A stretch of DNA of 64,000 nucleotides from Sphaerodactylus townsendi. Lineage: Eukaryota. Below, one piece after another: positions 3,490-18,900 of the stretch. Location: assembly GCF_021028975.2 (NCBI RefSeq), contig NC_059436.1, forward strand, positions 54,002,001 through 54,066,000, in the 5' to 3' direction. Position 1 is the stretch's first letter. Each line of letters starts with the position of its first letter. Under the pieces are notes generated by a model, which was not told the origin of the DNA, searched no databases, and worked only from the letters and a program-made list of their open reading frames with translations. The translations under genes and the position numbers were made by a program.

Positions 3490-3656
3490 AGAATAAATCG
3501 ACCTCTGTCCAACTTGACCTCTGCGTTTAGCAGAGGCCAACTTACTGGAGGTCCCTGGCCCCTCAATGATACGGCTGGTCTCCACTTGAGCCAGGGTTTT
3601 TACGGCTCTGGCACCAGCCTGGAGTAACACTCTCCCTCCAGCTGTCTGGGCCCTGC
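3490..3656 (+). mobile_element. L2-like LINE 3' fragment, interrupted by the Gypsy element (continues at 7892-8148)
   Basis: Removing the LTR element rejoins ...TGTCTGGGCCCTGC|GGGACCTTGGGGATTTCCGCAGGGCCTGTAAGACTGAGTTGTTCC, similar to L2 3' ends at ~47060-47620 and ~57655-58130. Confidence 0.65.
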
Positions 3657-3999
3657 TGTCAGAACCCCCAATAAAAAACAAACTCGTGCTGTAGAGCAGA
3701 AGCTTTATTTTAGATGAGTCTGCGAAGCAAAGCTGAGAATGGCAAATTCCAACACACACAACTCATATAACACTTTGGCCACCCCACCCCCATCCTTGGG
3801 AACGAGGGCTCCACAGAGAACACACGGAGATAGCAAGGGGGGGAGCGCAGGCAGTGACCTTGAAGACACCTGCGATGTGTAGACTTCCCAGAGCAGCTAG
3901 AAAATACAGTTAAGACAGCAGTAACCCTTTAAACCCCCTCCCAACAGTGAAACAATGAAATGCAGCAAAAGCAACCCCTCTCTTTTAGGCCTCCTGACA
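3657..3999 (-). repeat. 3' LTR (343 bp)
   Basis: TG...CA termini. AATAAA on the minus strand at 3704-3709. Differs from the 5' LTR by 2 substitutions and a 12-bp indel. Confidence 0.95.
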
Positions 4000-4010
4000 T
4001 ACTGCATCCT

Positions 4011-4874
4011 TTATGGCTTTTCTCCCGGCTTGTTTGGCCAACGTTGATGAAACCTTTTGACAAGGCCGGGGGCTTTTATGTTGTGGGCAAAGATCCACTG
4101 ATTTTGCCCAGGCAAACAACCCTTCCAGGAGACCAAATACTGCAAGCTGTTACGATACAAGCGAGAATCAAGAATATCAGACAGTTCATAATGCTTGGAG
4201 CCATCAATCAGAATCGGAGGAGGCACTTTCATCTCTGGATGCCAGACGTCCGGGGAAGTTGTCTTCTTCAGGAGACTGCAATGAAACACAGGGTGTAATT
4301 TACTCAAAGCTTTAGGCAAGTCCAGTTCAGCAGTTACCTTATTTATAACCCTGACAATTCGGAAGGGGCCCACATATTTCGCACTCAGCTTGGAGGGTCG
4401 GTGCAGGCTGCGCAAATTCTTAGTAGACAAATAGACCATGTCACCCACCACCAGAGGGAAATCACGCCTATGTTTATTTGCCTGACGCTTGTAGGCCTCC
4501 CTAGCCTTCATAAGAGCCCGAAGGATGCCCGGCCCCTGCTGAGCCACCGACTGAATCCAATCCTGAAGTTCAGGTGCAGGCGAAGAGTCAGACATCAGCA
4601 AATGAGGCAAGGGGGGAGCTGCCTGGCCATGAACCACCTCAAAAGGAGTTTTGCCCGTACTGCTATGAACAGAGTTATTATAGGCGTATTCAGCATAGGG
4701 CAACAGATCAACCCAATTATCTTGCTGATAATTGGCATAACACCTGAGGTATTGCTCCAATGTCTGTTGAGATCTCTCGGTCTCGCCGTCGGTCTGGGGA
4801 TGAAAGGCAGATGAGACCCCCTGCTCCACCCCCAACAATTTGAGCAAAGCCCTCCAGAAACGCGACACAAACAT
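4011..4874 (-). CDS. Gypsy integrase C-terminal part with GPF motif and chromodomain (after a 1-bp frameshift near 4875)
   Basis: FHPQTDGETER (catalytic E), YVGPFRIV and the chromodomain YELSDILDSR..LQYLVSWKG..W. Stop lies 11 nt before the 3' LTR. Confidence 0.9.
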   Translation of the reverse strand: MFVSRFWRALLKLLGVEQGVSSAFHPQTDGETERSQQTLEQYLRCYANYQQDNWVDLLPYAEYAYNNSVHSSTGKTPFEVVHGQAAPPLPHLLMSDSSPAPELQDWIQSVAQQGPGILRALMKAREAYKRQANKHRRDFPLVVGDMVYLSTKNLRSLHRPSKLSAKYVGPFRIVRVINKVTAELDLPKALSKLHPVFHCSLLKKTTSPDVWHPEMKVPPPILIDGSKHYELSDILDSRLYRNSLQYLVSWKGCLPGQNQWIFAHNIKAPGLVKRFHQRWPNKPGEKP

Positions 4875-7417
4875 GCCCCCCCATCTGAAATTATCTTCTT
4901 CGGAAACAAATGTAAACGGTAGATATGCAGCATGAACAGTTCAGCCAATTTCTGAGCAGTGGGAATAGAAGAACAAGGAATAAAGTGGGCCTGTTTCGAG
5001 AATAAATCCACTACAGTCCAAATCACCGTTTTGCCATGACTTAGCGGCAGGTCCGTAATGAAATCCATGGAAATCACCTGCCAGGGAGCACTAGGCAAAG
5101 CAATGTCCTGTAACAGACCCTGCGCCTTTGCAGGAATCGTCTTAGCCATGGCACACACAGGACATCCTTTGATATAATCCTCAATATCCTTACGCATAGT
5201 TCTCCACCAAAACTGCCTCCTGAGCAAGTGCAGAGTTTTCACAAAGCCGAAATGGCCAGCAGTTTTAACATCATGTCCCTGGTGGAGAATTTGAGAACGC
5301 AATGAGGGTGGAACAAACAGCAGAGATCCACGATACCAGAGACCATTCTGTAAGATCAGCCCATCACCCCCCTCCTCCTTTGCAACCGGAGACAGGCCAG
5401 CCGTTAGGAATGCAGAGAGGAGGTGATCTGGAGGAGACAGGCCAGGCTTGTCCTGAGCTAGCATGCGAGACCGGGTAACAACCAGGCCCAAATGGGAGGG
5501 CGAGAGGATTGTGCGGGTAAGAACAGAGAGAGATGAGGATTCACCCCCCTGTGGCAACCGGGAGAGTGCGTCCGCCAACCGATTGGTCTTACCCGGAAAG
5601 AAATGAACAGTGAACCGGAATCTAGCAAAGAAATCAGCCCAACGCGGCTGTTTAGCTGTCAGACGACCCGGGGTGCACAAAGCAGCCAGGTTCTTATGGT
5701 CAGTCCAAACTTCAAAAGGCTGTTCAGCTCCTTCCAAAAAATGCCTCCACACAGACAGAGCAACTTTCATAGCACAGGTTTCCTTATCCCCCACAGTCCA
5801 ATTCAGCTCAGCCCCAGAAAATTTACGGGAAAGGTAGGCACAGGGACGAAGGCGACCCATGGGGTCCCTCTGGAGGAGGGCAGCCCCAAGAGCCTTGTCT
5901 GAGGCATCCACGTGCAACACAAAGGGCCGAGAGGGGTCAGGATGAGCCAAAACAGGTTCAGATGTGAACGCCGCCTTCAGATTGTCAAAGGCTGCCTGGC
6001 AGGAAGGACCCCAGGGCAAACTGGCACCAGGGCGGGCCGCAGCAGCACCCCGTGATGTAGTACGCAGGAGGTCAGTCAGGGGCAGAGCCAGGGAGGAAAA
6101 ATTCGGAATAAAGTCACGGTAGAAATTTGCAAAGCCCAGAAAGGACTGGAGTTGTTTACGGGAGCGGGGGGGCTGCCAGGCGAGCACATCAGCTACTTTG
6201 GCAGGGTCCATTTGTAATCCAGCAGCAGAAATACGGTAACCTAAAAAGTCAAGCTGAGATTTGTGGAATTCACACTTGGAAAGCTTCACAAACAGAGAGT
6301 TAGCAAGAAGTCTCGTCAAGACCTCTCTAACCAAGGCAACATGAGAGGCTTCGTCCTGTGTATAGATCAAAACATCATCTAAATAGACAACCACCCCCTT
6401 GAACAACAAGTCATGCAGAACACCGTTAATCAAACTTTGAAACACGGCTGGCGCCCCCGTGAGGCCAAATGGGAGAACACAGTACTCGAATTGACCGTAT
6501 CTCGTGTTGAAGGCCGTCAGGTGCTCATGCCCCTCTGCCATCCTGACGCGATAGTACGCTTCCCTCAAATCCAACTTAGTGAAAATCTTGCCAGAGCCCA
6601 GGTTAGACAACAAATCCTTGATTAACGGCAAGGGGTATCTATTAGAGCTAGACACAGCGTTCAGGCCGCGGTAATCTGTGCAAAGGCGAAGCGTGCCATC
6701 CTTCTTCTTCACAAACAAAACAGGGGCAGCATAAGCACTGCGTGCTTTCTGAATAAAACCCCGAGCCAAATTCTTGTCCAAAAAAGCCCTCAATTCAGCA
6801 TCCTCAAGGGGACTCATTGGATAAATCCTGCCCTTGGGGAGTTTCGCCCCCGGAATCAGTTCAATCCTACAGTCCGTCTCTCGATGGGGAGGTAGCACAT
6901 CACACTCGGTTTCCTCAAAGACACGTTGTAAATCCTGATAAGGGGCAGGAATCACAGGAGCACTGCTGGCCGGCTGAAGGCTGCACGCCATGCCCTTAGA
7001 CGCACCTAACAAGTGGTCGGGAGGTTCAGAAGCTTGCATCATTCTCCAGGCTGCAGTGTCAGAGGCATCAGCTCGGTCCGCAGAACGGTCGGATAAGTTC
7101 CCAGCCAAGGGAGCTGTCGCCCACGTGGCACTGGACGTTCCCCACGGCAGGGAATCCCGGAGCATTTCAGCATTTCTACGACGCCTCATGGTAACTCCTT
7201 GTGAGGCGTCCAACGGAGCAGTCAAAAATCGAGTGGGAGCCTCCAGATAGCTGGTCGCAGGCAGTTCACCTCCGGAGGCAACTGTAAATCCAGCCGTAAC
7301 GCGGGGTCCCTCCAAGGGATCCGGTATTGAGTCCGACCCAGTTAAATCAGGCTCCAGGGGGAGTACTGGTTCAACTCTCAGAGTATCATCCCCACCGGCA
7401 GCACCCGAGGTCGACAT
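4595..7417 (-). CDS. Gag-N-terminus/Pol fusion ORF: RT, RNase H and integrase N-half (runs out of frame after ~4875)
   Basis: RT motifs LCTDYRGLN, KLDLREAY, LPFGL, YLDD. RNase H VDASD..LGAAL, WTDHKNL. Integrase HHCC (GH..AGH..CPVC), SMDFITDLP, IISDGG. Confidence 0.92.
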   Translation of the reverse strand: MSTSGAAGGDDTLRVEPVLPLEPDLTGSDSIPDPLEGPRVTAGFTVASGGELPATSYLEAPTRFLTAPLDASQGVTMRRRRNAEMLRDSLPWGTSSATWATAPLAGNLSDRSADRADASDTAAWRMMQASEPPDHLLGASKGMACSLQPASSAPVIPAPYQDLQRVFEETECDVLPPHRETDCRIELIPGAKLPKGRIYPMSPLEDAELRAFLDKNLARGFIQKARSAYAAPVLFVKKKDGTLRLCTDYRGLNAVSSSNRYPLPLIKDLLSNLGSGKIFTKLDLREAYYRVRMAEGHEHLTAFNTRYGQFEYCVLPFGLTGAPAVFQSLINGVLHDLLFKGVVVYLDDVLIYTQDEASHVALVREVLTRLLANSLFVKLSKCEFHKSQLDFLGYRISAAGLQMDPAKVADVLAWQPPRSRKQLQSFLGFANFYRDFIPNFSSLALPLTDLLRTTSRGAAAARPGASLPWGPSCQAAFDNLKAAFTSEPVLAHPDPSRPFVLHVDASDKALGAALLQRDPMGRLRPCAYLSRKFSGAELNWTVGDKETCAMKVALSVWRHFLEGAEQPFEVWTDHKNLAALCTPGRLTAKQPRWADFFARFRFTVHFFPGKTNRLADALSRLPQGGESSSLSVLTRTILSPSHLGLVVTRSRMLAQDKPGLSPPDHLLSAFLTAGLSPVAKEEGGDGLILQNGLWYRGSLLFVPPSLRSQILHQGHDVKTAGHFGFVKTLHLLRRQFWWRTMRKDIEDYIKGCPVCAMAKTIPAKAQGLLQDIALPSAPWQVISMDFITDLPLSHGKTVIWTVVDLFSKQAHFIPCSSIPTAQKLAELFMLHIYRLHLFPKKIISDGGACLCRVSGGLCSNCWGWSRGSHLPFIPRPTARPRDLNRHWSNTSGVMPIISKIIGLICCPMLNTPIITLFIAVRAKLLLRWFMARQLPPCLIC

Positions 7418-7542
7418 ACTGACGCACAGAAGTCCTCAGGCAGAAAAAATAAAGTCCAGAAAATCAAGGAAAAAATAAATAAAAAATTGTAGAAGGTGCA
7501 ATTCCAGCAAGCAAGTCCGCATGGAATTCAGCCTTAAAGGGG

Positions 7543-7553
7543 ATTCTCAGCTT
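7543..7553 (-). promoter_or_regulatory. Self-priming primer-binding site (11 nt)
   Basis: Minus-strand AAGCTGAGAAT, 2 nt inside the 5' LTR boundary. It is exactly complementary to ATTCTCAGCTT at 7639-7629 in the LTR and has no TGG tRNA-type start. Confidence 0.85.
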
Positions 7554-7555
7554 AA

Positions 7556-7886
7556 TGTCAGAACCCCCAATAAAAAACAAACTCGTGCTGTAGAGCAGAA
7601 GCTTTATTTTAGATGAGTCTGCGAAGCAAAGCTGAGAATGGCAAATTCCAACACACACAACTCATATAACACTTCGGCCACCCCACCCCCATCCTTGGGA
7701 ACGAGGGCTCCACAGAGAACACACGGAGATAGCAAGGGGGGGAGCGCAGGCAGTGACCTTGAAGACACCTGCGATGTGTAGACTTCCCAGAGCAGCTAGA
7801 AAATACAGTTAAGACAGCAGTAACCCTTTAAACCCCCTCCCAACAGTGAAACAATGAAATGCAGCAAAAGCAATCCCTCTCTGACA
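7556..7886 (-). repeat. 5' LTR (331 bp)
   Basis: TG...CA termini. TATA at 7668-7665 and AATAAA at 7608-7603 on the minus strand. Confidence 0.95.
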
Positions 7887-8148
7887 CCTGCGGGACCTTG
7901 GGGATTTCCGCAGGGCCTGTAAGACTGAGTTGTTCCACCGGGCCTTTGGAGAGACCAGCAGCTGAGGGTGCCCCAGCCCCCCTCCTCCTTACCCCCCATG
8001 GGCCCAATACCATCAGGACCCATATTTTTCATTAGGAGGGCTTCGTAAGGGATCCATGGGGTGATGTTTTAAGATGACTGTTGTTTTAAACGATATGTAT
8101 GGTTTTAGTTGATGTTTTATTGTACACCGCCCTGAGCCCTCCAGGGAT

Positions 8149-8368
8149 NNNNNNNNNNNNNNNNNNNNNNNNNNNNNNNNNNNNNNNNNNNNNNNNNNNN
8201 NNNNNNNNNNNNNNNNNNNNNNNNNNNNNNNNNNNNNNNNNNNNNNNNNNNNNNNNNNNNNNNNNNNNNNNNNNNNNNNNNNNNNNNNNNNNNNNNNNNN
8301 NNNNNNNNNNNNNNNNNNNNNNNNNNNNNNNNNNNNNNNNNNNNNNNNNNNNNNNNNNNNNNNNNNNN
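8149..8368. other. Assembly gap (220 N)
   Basis: Run of N. Confidence 1.
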
Positions 8369-10075
8369 CCATTATACAGAAAGCAGTGACGTGGCCTGCG
8401 GGGGTGGAAGGGTTAACCTTTCTCCCATTTTGCAGCCTGATCCAGCCGCCCTCTTGCCCACCACAGCTGCTGTGTAAACTGGAAAAGCCCATCGCTGCTC
8501 AGTGGGGGGCTCTCCAATGTTACTTCTTTGCAGGACCTGTAAAGTGACCTGCTATTGCAGAAACCTTCTTGTATTGACTTAGGACTTTCTCAGTGTTTGC
8601 TTTGGAGAATGGTCCTTTTCACAGCTTATCACAAAGATCTGTCCAAACGTGCCCTCTGCCCTTTGCTCTGGCTGGTTTTGGAGGCTTCAAGTGGGTAGGT
8701 AAAATGAAGGGTGCAGAGAGAAAATAGCATTTGAGCAGATTCAGGTGGTTTGTCAGGGGGATGCATGCCTGAGTAAACAAAATGCATTCTGTAATCACCA
8801 GATACAACCAATCAATGTCTCTTTGATATAAGTGTGAGCTGCTACATGTTACCATTGCCGTCTGTGCATTCCTTCCTTGACCTATGCTTTATGGCTTTGC
8901 CTACTTTGTAGTAAACTAGGCTTCCCCTGCATCTCCTGTCCCATGAGAAAAGAGTTACAACTATTATCTTGTTGTGGGATGTCAGAATCCCAAAAACTGA
9001 AACAAACAGTAGTTTATTGAGCATTGAGGATCTTCTCTGGTCATGCCAGAACTGAGGTTTCCCCGTGCAAAACCCACTAGTTAAAGTGGTTCGCACCCCC
9101 CCCCCTTCCTGGGAAAGCGTGCTCAAAAGGAACTGTGAAAGAGATAACAGTAGAGATGGCAAGGCACTGACCTTGAGCAGCACCTGGTACAGTATACATC
9201 ACACAAAAGACAGTTGCAAGTCAGTTAGAAATGCAATTAACCCATTCCACCACCCCCTAGCATACAGAAAGCAGCAATAGCAAAATCCCCATAATAACAG
9301 GCCTCCTGACATGGGCAGAGGACCAGATGGTTCCCTGTTGCTGACCTTGGGGCAGTCTCGGTTCCAGAGGCTGCCACTGGGAAGCTGGGAGGGGGGAATC
9401 TGTAGGGGATATATGGGTCTGTGAATGCCAGTGTCTTCAGAACTGACTTTCGCCAAGTATGGCGCTTCAATACCTTATGAATAAACGCTAATGATTGATA
9501 CTTCAGTGTCTGTTTATTGGCTTAAGGTTCCGAGACCTAACACTGCTGCAATGCCTGATGGGAAAAAATCATAGTGAGCTCAACCAAAGCTCAAACTGTG
9601 TTACTTATATTTTCATCCTACTTGTTATCCAAAGACCAGCTCCCAGGAATCAGAGGACAATATACAGAACGATTGACTTTTTAAAAGTTTCTTGGAGAGG
9701 AGCCCCTCTGCTGGCTGTTTCCTGACCTCCTTCTGATCACCTCAGGTCTCAGCAAGTCCCTTTATCCCATCCGCCTACACCATATCTACAACTATTCAAC
9801 AATAATTTTGCAGAACAGCATGCAAGGTGTTGTACAGATCACAGAAGGGGCAAGTTATTTGTTCAAAAGCCCCCTAATTTCATACCTTCCATTTACATGA
9901 TGTAGGCAGGTAACAGGAATATACAGACTGAACTGCCCAATACTTTGTTGCCTTAACTTGCTTTTAAAACTACACTTACTTTTAAAACTACACTTTGTTT
10001 TAAAAACTCTTTTGTATGTGTGCAGAATTGTCACCCAGCTAAATATCTTTTCCCATCCTCAAGCTGCTCTTAGAC

Positions 10076-14289: not shown

Positions 14290-15339
14290 ACTCTCCTTTG
14301 CTTGGTTAAAAATGTGTCATTTGGGGATTAAAAATAGACTTGGAAAGGTTGAGTGAAAATGTTACTAGTTGTCAGTGTTTATTAATATATAAATTGGTGT
14401 TATTGCACAAGAATGTTTGGTGAAATAAGCAAGGTAGAAGGAACTCCCTCCCTCAAATTTATATCAGTCTCTATCCTGTTGAAAATTAAGATCCATGCTA
14501 TGTCATTTATTTATATAGGTTTTAAGCTGAAGAAAATGACAGCGCTGAACCCCCTCAAGGGGAATACAGTGCAACAAGTAGAAGCAGCCTATTATTGAAC
14601 ATTAGTTCATGTGTGTCTTTAATGGGTTTTCCTTTCTGTGTGCTTTTACACTGAGAAAAATCGAATTAAGAACATTCAAAGGCGCCAGCTGCGCTGTTCA
14701 CGATTGGCTACTGCAAGAGGTCATGTGCTGCCATCAGCTCTGCTGGAGGGAAGATTTAAGAATATGGAACGCCCTAAAGAGTTTGTTCATGTGGACAGGA
14801 CTACGGTTGAAACATTTGACCATACCCGTTTCTATGCCCTAAATACAATAAGATAATGATGAAATACGCTGAATTCCATTTCTTGCAATGTCTCAGTGGC
14901 AGGAGTGTTACAAGATCCCCACCTGGAATAACAGCTCTGATGTGCTCTTTGTGAAACTGTTGCAAAATTTTAATTGAAATTGGGGTAGTTTTAACCGTAT
15001 TTTAACCTTGTTTTGTTTTAAAAATTTGTCCTGTTCTATTTGCCAATAAAGGCGTGTGTGTGTGTGTGTGTGTGTGTAAGTGAAGGGCATCAAGGGCAAG
15101 ATTGACTGCAGCAGGATTACAGCTAACCTTTTATCTGATAATGAAGAACCATATAATGTTTATATTAAATTTTTATTTTTTTATTTTATTTTTTTATTGT
15201 TTATGCTATTGATGTCAGAAGGAGCAGGACTTATCCTGAAAGTAGAAAGCTCTCATTCCTGTACTACTATATCTGAAACAAGAATTTTGATAAGAGCATT
15301 AAACAGAAATGAATAATAAATAAATACAAATAAGTCCTG

Positions 15340-15900
15340 CGGGCGACCCGTCTGATTCTTCTGACTGTGGGCGGAAGTGCGGCTCCGAGGCGGCGAAGGG
15401 TCCGGCCAAGGCAGCGCCCGGGCGGAAGTGGCGCGCGGGGGGCTCTGGGAAATGTAGTCCCCGCCTTCCCGCCGGGCGCCCCGCGAGTCCGCCATGCAGC
15501 CGCCGCCGCCGGGGCTGGCGCTGCTGCCGCTGCTGCTGCTGGCCGCGGTGGGGCCGCCGCCGTCGGGCGCGCTGGAGCCCATCAGCGTGGGCATCGCCAT
15601 CGGGGCGGCGTCGGCGCTCACCGGCTACCTCTCCTACCCGGGCTTCTACTGCGGCTTCGTGGAGTGCTGCCCCGGAGAGCAGGACCGGCCCAACGGAACC
15701 GGTACAGGTGGGGGGGGGGGAGGACTGGAGCAGGAGGAGCCGGTTCCGTGGGCTGGGGCGGTGGGGCTGGGGCGGGGAGGGTTGCTGCCGAGGAACTGGG
15801 ATTGGACTGGGAGAACTGGGGGCTGCAGAACTAGTGCCGTTGCAGTGGCCCCATAGACCTGGCACGGGCGCGCACCGGTGGGGCGGGGGGGGGGGGCGGT
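15340..15900 (+). promoter_or_regulatory. TOR1B CpG-island promoter
   Basis: CpG-rich. ETS/GABP-type GCGGAAGTG at ~15371 and ~15422. ZNF143/THAP11-type ACTACATTTCCCA on the minus strand at 15446-15458. Kozak GCCGCC-like ATG at 15494. Confidence 0.8.
15494..15701 (+). CDS. TOR1B: TOR1B exon 1
   Basis: [18 protein letters not shown]...[18 protein letters not shown]...ECC...NGT. Phase-1 GT donor; alternative donor at 15708. Confidence 0.88.
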
Positions 15901-18900
15901 CAAAAGCAGCTGGCTCAAGACAACTGGTGCTGGTGGTCGGGTTGCCAGATCCAGGTTGGGGAACTCCTGGAGATTGCGGGATGGAGCCTGAGAAGGACTC
16001 CGTGGGGTACAGTGCCATAGAGCCCCCCTCCAGGGGCAGTGTCCTCTGTAGTTCCAAGAGAGGTCAACTGTTAGGATTACAGTTCATCATCCCCTGCCAG
16101 CAAAATGCTGGCAGGGGATGATGGGGACTGTAGTCCATAACATCTGGAGAGCTGCGAGTTTGACACCTGTGTTCGAGGGGATCCCCAGGTCTGAGCTGGA
16201 GGCTGGCATCCCTAGCACTGGACTGGCATGGGGGGAGGGGGAAACAGAGGGTGTTCCCAAAAGAGGTCCAACAGGATGACCACATTCAGGGTCAAAAAGG
16301 GAGGCCGCAAGAGCAAGAGGCTCCAGCCGGTGCCAGGGAGGGAGGGGAGGGGGGGGGGCTGGAAAGAGCTGGTTTTCCAGGGCAGCCGTTAACCCCTTCC
16401 TGGCCTTTCTCTTTTTGGCTGGCTCAGCCCTCAGACTGAATCTGGACGCCAAACTCTTCGGGCAGCACCTGGCCAAAGAAGTGATCCTGAAAGCCCTGAC
16501 CGGGTTCATCAACAACCCCAACCCCAAGAAGCCGCTGACCCTCTCTTTGCACGGCTGGGCCGGCACCGGCAAGAACTTTGTCAGCCAGATCATCGCGGAG
16601 AACGTTCACAAAGCCGGCCTGAAGAGTAAATTCGTGCACCTTTTCCTCTCCACTCTTCATTTCCCGCATGATCATGAAATAAAGCTGTACAAGGTGAGGG
16701 GGCGCAGACCTTCCGGGGCTTCTTTGAGGGGTGGGAACTGGGTTGCTGTGTTCAAGCTCTTGGCAACTCTTATGAAGAAGAAGAAGAAGAGGAGGAGTTT
16801 GGATTTATATCCCCCCTTTCTCTCCTGCAGGAGACTCAAAGGGGCTGACAATCTCCTTGCCCTTCCCCCCTCACAACAAACACCCTGTGAGGTAGGTGGG
16901 CTGAGAGAGTCTCAGAAGCCAAGCGACTAGCTCCAAGGTCACCCAGCTGGCGTGGTGTGGGAGCACAGGCTACTCTGAATTCCCCAGATAAGCCTCCACA
17001 GCTCAGGCGGCAGAGCTGGGAATCAAACCCAGTTCCTCCAGATTAGATACACGAGCTCTTAACCTCCTACGCCACTTGCTTATCATCCAGTGTAGAAAAT
17101 GGATTACTTTTTGTGTTGTGGTTGGTACAAAGATTTATCTTGAATCCTCCTTCAAATCTAGACTATTCTAGAGTCAGTCTTTGAAGTGCTCGTTGAAAGG
17201 ATCTCCAGATGTTCATTAGAAGAACTTTTCTCTGTCTGGAAAACCACTACCACAACTGGGAAAAGCCAGCATGATGTAGTGGTTAAGAGTGGTGGACATT
17301 AATCTGGAGGACCAGGTTTGATTCTCCACTCCTCCACGTGAAGCCTGCTGAATGACCTTGGGCCAGTCCCGGTTCTCTCAGCACTCTCTCAGCCCCACCT
17401 GCCTCACAAGGTGTCTGTTGTGGAGAGAGGAAGGGAAAGGAGTTTGTAAGGCCCTTTGAGACTCCTTACAGGCCAGGCATAAATCCAAACTCCTTCTCCT
17501 CCTCTTCTTCTACCAGTCTGGCAGAACGAGTGAGAAAGAACTGAGGCTCATACTCATGTTCAGTCTGTTTATCTTCACAATGCTGTCTGCTGCATAAAAA
17601 TGAAACAAAGGTCCAGGATGTTTAGTTCCTGTTCCCATGACCTTTCAAAGATGTTTTGTTTGGCAGTGCTCTCCAAGGCAAGAAACTAATCATGTGACTT
17701 TCTGGAAAGGGAGTTGAAACTCAGAAAAGGAAATTCAAAACCTGGTGTGTTCTCTTCTCCCTTGTTTTACAAGATGGCTTGCAAGCCCCAGGAAACTCCA
17801 TTCTCTTTTCTCAGACCTTTAAAATTAGGCAGATTTTTCTCTGGAGATCACTAGAATAATGAATGATATTTAGTCACATCTAAGAACATAAGAACTAGCC
17901 TGCTGGATCAGACCAGAGTCCATCTAGTCCAGCACTCTGCTACTCGCAGTGGCCCAGCAGGTGCCTTTGGGAGCTCACGTGCAGGATGTGAAAGCAAGAG
18001 CCTTCTGCTGCTGCTGCTGCTGCTCCTGAGCAGGTCTGCTAAGGCATTTGCAACCTCAGATCAAGGAGGATTAAGATTGGTAGCCAGAGATCAACTTCTC
18101 CTCCATAAATCTGTCCAAGCCCTTTTTAAAGCTATCCAGCTCATAATATCTATATTATGAGCAATTACAAAATGTTTAAATTGCAGGTACCAGCAAATTA
18201 CAAAGGTACAAAAGTATGTAGGTTGAATGAGGAAATGAAACCAAAAAAACATCAAGGAGGGATGACGAGAACGAGGGTGCATAAAGATTTGGGTTTCCAA
18301 TCTCCAGGTGGTTCCACCATATTAAAAAAATTGTGGGGTGGGTGCACTTAAGTAAATGCAGCCAATCCATTTTTACACAGTTAGGGCTAAACCACTTGTC
18401 CTAAGATAGGGATACATTGTAAGTCTTTATAATGAAAATTCTTGTGTTGACATTCATACCAAAGGACTCCTTGCGTCTCTAACACAAATAATGCTTTCAG
18501 CGTGCAATATACGCTCACGTATAACTACAATGTATGCAATACAAATATTAGTAACATGCAAATAGTCAATCATTATTCCACAATCATATATGGGTTTGGG
18601 TTAACCAAACTCCAGTAAGTTTTATGGAGGAGATTTATGGAGGAGAAGTCGATCTATGGCTACCAATCTTGATCCTCCTTGATCTCAGATTGCAAATGCC
18701 TTAGCAGACCAGGTGCTCGGGAGCAACAGCCGCAGAAGGCCATTGCTTTCACATCCCGCGCAGAGCTCCCAAAGGCACCTGGTGGGCCACTCTCATGGCA
18801 GCAGAGTGCTGGGACCAGATGGACTCTGGTCTGATCCAGCAGGCTAGTTCTTTGTTCTTAAGGCCCTTTGCTTTCACATCCTGCGTGTGAGCTCCCAAAG

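Follow-up and report, generated by a model that had tools for sequence, protein, structure and literature searches.

A defective chromovirus on the minus strand

The window, that is the whole stretch of 64,000 nucleotides analysed, contains an LTR retrotransposon on its minus strand. The 5' LTR (7556..7886, 331 nt) and the 3' LTR (3657..3999, 343 nt) both run from TGTCAG to CTGACA, and the element is bounded by a target-site duplication, GCAGG, on the same strand with its upstream copy at 7887..7891 and its downstream copy at 3652..3656. LTR ends of the TG...CA type and a target-site duplication are features of Ty3/gypsy chromoviruses. A purine-rich, interrupted stretch adjoining the 3' LTR (4000..4022, minus strand) is, from its position, a putative polypurine tract. 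Only two substitutions and one gap of 12 nt distinguish the two LTRs, and the insertion is therefore young. The gap lies near the start of the 5' LTR (7882-7870, minus strand), where 12 nt present in the 3' LTR are missing. The longer form of the LTR, with these 12 nt, appears in contigs of sequencing run X6 and the gap may be specific to the window copy.

The sequences flanking the element (7887-7950 and 3560-3656) read like a single interrupted host repeat and resemble the 3' terminus of an L2 LINE, which they may represent. A run of N marking an assembly gap is found at about 8140-8370, some 250 nt beyond the 5' LTR. A torsin gene exon (16280-16930, plus strand; PF06309, E 1e-36) lies about 8 kb from the element and is accompanied by a GC-rich frame resembling a first exon near 15330-15830.

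The main open frame of the element (4595..7435, minus strand) begins with about 148 unmatched codons and continues with reverse transcriptase, RNase H, the integrase zinc finger and the start of the integrase core. The rest of the integrase is found in another frame (4011..4940, minus strand), together with a Tf2-1-like SH3 domain and a chromodomain, the integrase being frameshifted near 4880. The Pfam families PF00078, PF17919/PF17917, PF17921, PF24626 and PF00385 all scored above their cut-offs, and the order of reverse transcriptase, RNase H and integrase with a C-terminal chromodomain fits a Ty3/gypsy chromovirus. The closest solved structure is that of Ty3 Pol. The translation of the open frame contains the YLDD motif of the reverse transcriptase and the acidic residues of RNase H. 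No capsid, zinc knuckle or protease was found in the element, and for P0008, a relative from a snake that is full-length, residues 1-507 (Gag-protease) are without a counterpart in it; similarity to P0008 starts at about 6991. The approximately 148 codons upstream of this point (7435-6991, minus strand) are unmatched in P0008 and in frame with the reverse transcriptase. An autonomous element has an intact Gag, protease and integrase, and the window copy does not. It is internally deleted and defective. Given the absence of capsid and protease and the frameshift in the integrase, it could therefore move only with the help of intact family members, if at all.

Among named proteins the closest, at 53-62% identity, are those of a gecko and of snakes, followed by those from frogs and fish at about 45-50%. 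These neighbours point to a lizard as the likely host. A scan of viral contigs with a single protein gave no relative. The position of the element was examined in a quick maximum-likelihood tree (IQ-TREE) of 63 RT-RNase H rows, built with SH-aLRT support only and without plant chromoviruses or the named references (sushi-ichi, Tf1 and the named V-clade elements). The element fell in a clade of nine rows (100% support) whose other members are proteins of geckos and snakes and a single unnamed one. This squamate clade was joined by frog and fish rows with 89% support, and all of these lay within a clade of 58 rows (98%) which also held fungal rows; three elements with a TGG-type primer-binding site (PBS) were placed outside. 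A reverse transcriptase located among fungal and vertebrate chromoviruses, in this quick tree without named references, is what is expected for the Tf1/sushi group. Judged from its sequence, the element is a recently inserted Ty3/gypsy chromovirus of that group.

The primer-binding site and its complement in the LTR

The sequence-only reading had placed a PBS that is not of the tRNA type 2 nt past the 5' LTR and an exact complement to it inside the LTR. Both were confirmed. The PBS, AAGCTGAGAAT, occupies 7543..7553 on the minus strand and is separated by two nucleotides (TT) from the LTR end at 7556. A TGG lying 0-5 nt past the LTR is the mark of a tRNA-type PBS, and none occurs in the 26 nt past the 5' LTR. 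The exact reverse complement of the PBS is found at 7639-7629, with a second copy in the 3' LTR (3740-3730) and no further occurrence of this 11-mer in the 64,000-nt window. The pairing does not extend beyond these 11 bp on either side and the duplex has a predicted energy of -14.4 kcal/mol. Among 20,000 dinucleotide shuffles, 21 gave a match of at least 11 nt anywhere in the LTR, with the PBS at an offset of 0-5 nt (p about 0.001). Complementarity of some 10 bp or more between the PBS and the LTR of the same element is typical of the Tf1/sushi group; here there are 11 bp at an offset of 2. The stretch in the LTR, ATTCTCAGCTT (7629..7639, minus strand), would form nucleotides 1-11 of the RNA and is the predicted self-primer, provided that the start site is placed correctly.

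The signals around this predicted start agree in part with what had been claimed, namely a CA initiator 29 nt downstream of a TATA box and upstream of AATAAA. The positions are correct: the TATA (7668-7665) precedes 7639 by 29 nt, and the AATAAA polyadenylation signal (7603..7608, minus strand) lies in R, 31 nt past 7639. The initiator consensus is YYANWYY and that of the TATA box is TATAWAWR. CCATTCT at 7641-7635 is the sole YYANWYY sequence among the 327 LTR bases scanned, and the 11-nt complement begins within it. The part of the claim that did not stand is the TATA box. The sequence concerned, TATATGAG (7661..7668, minus strand), does not match TATAWAWR, and a variant at 7667 accounts for 635 of the 1139 depth units of run X1, for 21 of the 38 of X2 and for all 210 of X6. 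It is therefore an AT-rich, TATA-like box, non-canonical and variable among copies, rather than a conserved TATA. Indirectly, this box and the unique initiator suggest that transcription would start at 7639.

Further copies of the family were sought by aligning contigs from four of 13 sequencing runs to 7380-7900; these contigs are unphased and cannot show where the RNA starts. No substitution was present in the PBS among the variants listed for X1, X2 and X6, or in the primer among those listed for X1 and X2. Just upstream of the primer, 7641 and 7643 differ in most copies of X1 and X2, and two X6 contigs cease matching right after 7640. The resulting edge of conservation at 7640 fits a U3/R boundary at the position predicted from the LTR. 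At primer position 6 (window 7634) a U in place of C was found in all of the X6 depth and also in X9 (two other organisms, unphased contigs). No matching change in the PBS was listed for X6, and the X9 contigs do not span the PBS. The substitution gives a G-U pair with a duplex energy of -12.2 as against -14.4 kcal/mol, and it would be a tolerated G-U pair and not a compensatory change. If it proves real in phased copies, then replication does not renew the PBS by copying the primer.

Related families and folding of the leader

The sequence-only reading had proposed comparing the PBS with the start of R across related families. For this comparison 173 loci with a related reverse transcriptase were fetched from three collections and the window was added. 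A repeat flanking the reverse transcriptase was found at 61 loci, window included, and in 24 of these the LTR end was defined in both copies. Removal of three TGG elements, four near-duplicates (L036, L044, L061 and L060) and one locus with a mis-picked end (L080) left 16 families, counting L112, whose short repeat is doubtful and whose pairing reaches just 5 bp. The window element is the only squamate family with LTRs among the 16.

The comparison came out as a self-priming group would lead one to expect. With LTR ends defined and no TGG, 11 of the 16 families pair with their own LTR over 9-12 bp, and in all 11 the PBS begins 1-2 nt past the LTR end. None of the 240 combinations of a PBS from one family with an LTR from another reached 9 bp. 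The remaining five families showed 5-8 bp only, and the three TGG elements only 4-5 bp with their own LTRs. The PBSs of the other families match that of the window element at only 1-4 of 9 positions; the letters differ among families, and each family therefore has its own matched pair. Fish-clade members are represented among the 11 by L017, L018 and L024 (11, 9 and 10 bp). The primers begin at a pyrimidine-purine step in 8 of the 11 families (p=0.0007) and an AT-rich box lies 24-36 nt upstream of the primer in 9 of the 11, both patterns having been chosen after seeing the data. A boundary-free scan, kept outside the main tally, covered 28 loci without defined LTR ends: six of them (L114, L020, L096, L111, L124 and L074; 10-14 bp) beat all 20 of their block shuffles and 22 did not.

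Two observations were made on the loci themselves. L028, L036, L044 and L061, which form one family among the fungal-type rows, show 8 bp, a one-base bulge and 5 more bp past the 5' LTR, and this bulged self-primer is undercounted by a test for perfect matches. Many of the loci L096-L173 are eukaryotic LTR retrotransposons whose contigs had been assigned to genomes of bacteria and archaea, probably through contamination during binning.

The RNA of Tf1 forms a 'pretzel' of three duplexes, as described in the available portion of bioRxiv 10.1101/2022.12.06.519325, and the leader of the window element was folded, without pseudoknots, for comparison. The central duplex would be that of primer and PBS and is predicted to be strong, at -14.4 kcal/mol. 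A second duplex is predicted between U5 (7565..7575) and the leader directly past the PBS (7532..7542), both on the minus strand, with 4 bp, a 2x2 loop and 5 bp (-10.5 kcal/mol). This U5-leader stem gave p=0.034 against 500 shuffles, with p<0.05 in 3 of 11 families, and is plausible as a modelled structure. The third duplex, of R with the end of U5, was no better than chance (p=0.44) and gave p<0.05 in 1 of 11 families. Overall, the R-U5-leader region folds better than its shuffles (z=-2.8). The description of the self-priming signature as 'complete' was thus overstated: the 11-bp pairing and the absence of TGG stand, while the signature has a weak TATA and a third duplex of the pretzel at chance level, and the copy is missing capsid and protease.

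A rival fold is close in energy to the fold with primer and PBS paired. In it the U5 stem (7568-7560) extends into the PBS (7547-7539) and nucleotides 5-13 of the RNA pair with an imperfect second site (7528..7536, minus strand). Pairing at this second site gave p=0.018 against 2000 shuffles, but was chosen after the fact and may be chance. Under nested folding, which does not score a pseudoknotted pretzel with its extra stem, the rival fold hides the PBS in two of six fragment lengths; the probability of primer-PBS pairing was 0.03 and 0.07 in these two and 0.87-1.0 in the other four. Because of the rival fold and the second site, both of which may be due to chance, it can be imagined that the leader is a two-state switch gating self-priming, in which a U5 mimic of the first five bases of the primer would extend the stem into the PBS and the displaced primer would dock on a decoy 17 nt further downstream. 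We consider such a switch unlikely. Were it real, the RNA would stay unprimed, and translatable, until refolded by Gag, and a vertebrate model for such control would be at hand in this young squamate family. Control of this kind is not mentioned for the Tf1/sushi group in the portions of the literature available to us.

Self-priming, its alternatives and known systems

The observations to be explained are the element and its clade, the 11-bp complement, the absence of TGG and the recurrence of this arrangement, in other letters, among related families. Very probably the primer of reverse transcription in this family is not a tRNA but the stretch of nucleotides 1-11 of the element's RNA, as in Tf1. 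This reading, put forward before from the sequence, fits the arrangement at the locus, the placement among chromoviruses and the pairing of families with their own LTRs and not with those of others. Transcription would start at 7639 and nucleotides 1-11 of the RNA would fold back onto 7553-7543, with the run of G in U5 pairing with the CCCC past the PBS and stacking against the 5' end of the primer. By analogy with Tf1, the RNase H of the element would then cut after about nucleotide 11, and the freed 3' end would be extended by reverse transcriptase over the spacer of 2 nt and on into U5 and R.

Chance complementarity in one dead copy has to be considered, given that 64 kb was scanned and a coincidence could have been picked out. 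The position of the match was fixed beforehand by the LTR end, at which p is about 0.001, the match falls at the unique initiator and the layout is repeated in 10 other families. The contrast between own and cross-family pairing (11/16 and 0/240) largely refutes this explanation, which is scarcely credible. A different possibility is that a host RNA fragment, such as a tRNA half or a small RNA without a CCA end, serves as primer, the complement in the LTR being a relic of self-priming ancestors. Priming by half-tRNAs is known in Ty1/copia elements, and in the available part of the same source is reported in copia lineages only (PMC6317226). ARAGORN found no tRNA gene in the window, which offers no host tRNA to compare with the PBS. 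A relic would be expected to decay, yet the families keep the complement to their own PBS (again 11/16 and 0/240). No Rfam family reached threshold at 7300-7900, where the two matches below it were at chance level. We regard priming by a host RNA as highly improbable.

The pairing might also be purely structural, closing the 5' leader with a role in packaging, dimerisation or masking of the poly(A) signal, while transcription starts further upstream and priming occurs in another way. The weak and variable TATA would suit this, as would the folding of the R-U5-leader region above the level of its shuffles. Against it, the paired stretch opens at the sole initiator of the LTR and initiator-like steps recur in the relatives, the partner site 1-2 nt past the LTR is where minus-strand synthesis must begin, and no other primer site is visible. 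A structural role without priming is thus improbable, and self-priming is the preferred reading.

Butler et al. 2001 is said to be the source for self-priming in vertebrates. That Tf1 primes itself and that this extends to vertebrate sushi-like chromoviruses, as the sequence-only reading stated, is borne out by the literature. Yeast and vertebrate members of the Tf1/sushi group are described as having self-primers, with at least 10 bp of LTR complement 0-5 bp past the 5' LTR as the criterion for predicting them (PMC6317226), self-priming is called a common feature of the group (bioRxiv 10.1101/2022.12.06.519325) and is implicated from fungi to vertebrates (PMC4600332), and the Tf1 primer is the first 11 bases, released by an RNase H cut between bases 11 and 12 (PMC7175516). 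Self-priming is therefore already described for the Tf1/sushi group, vertebrates included, and the window element is a further predicted case, from the squamate branch. The signature is an expected hallmark of sushi-like elements and will not surprise a specialist. It extends a known prediction to squamates with a clean, young example. A literature search, with most subscription journals outside its scope, turned up no experiment in which self-priming of a vertebrate element was put to the test, and none of the squamate or reptile chromovirus papers among the matches listed contained 'self-priming', although squamate cases may still be published, for example in the tables of PMC6317226 or in repeat databases. 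With its short leader RNA, the family lends itself to such an experiment.

Compared with known systems, the element shares with the vertebrate sushi-like elements the order of reverse transcriptase, RNase H and integrase with a chromodomain, a reverse transcriptase placed with chromovirus proteins of frogs and fish, the lack of a tRNA-type PBS, and complementarity of the PBS to the predicted start of the RNA. The Sushi LTR motif given in the accessible part of PMC3601003, TGTYANR...CNTNACA, fits its 5' end and, in part, its 3' end, CTGACA. It differs from these elements, whose named V-clade members are not in the tree, in belonging to a squamate branch, in its own primer sequence and in lacking capsid and protease. 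With Tf1 and Tf2 of Schizosaccharomyces pombe and Tj1 of S. japonicus it has in common an 11-base complement between RNA start, here predicted, and PBS and a stem with U5 adjacent to the PBS, here likewise predicted, while the primer sequence and the host differ. In Tf1 self-priming was shown by experiment, whereas here it is predicted and the third pretzel duplex is at chance level. Plant chromoviruses of the Tcn1 clade (REXdb) are likewise predicted to be self-priming by the criterion in the available text of PMC6317226, to which the element answers with 11 bp at an offset of 2; their hosts are mosses and club mosses and they form a different branch of the group.
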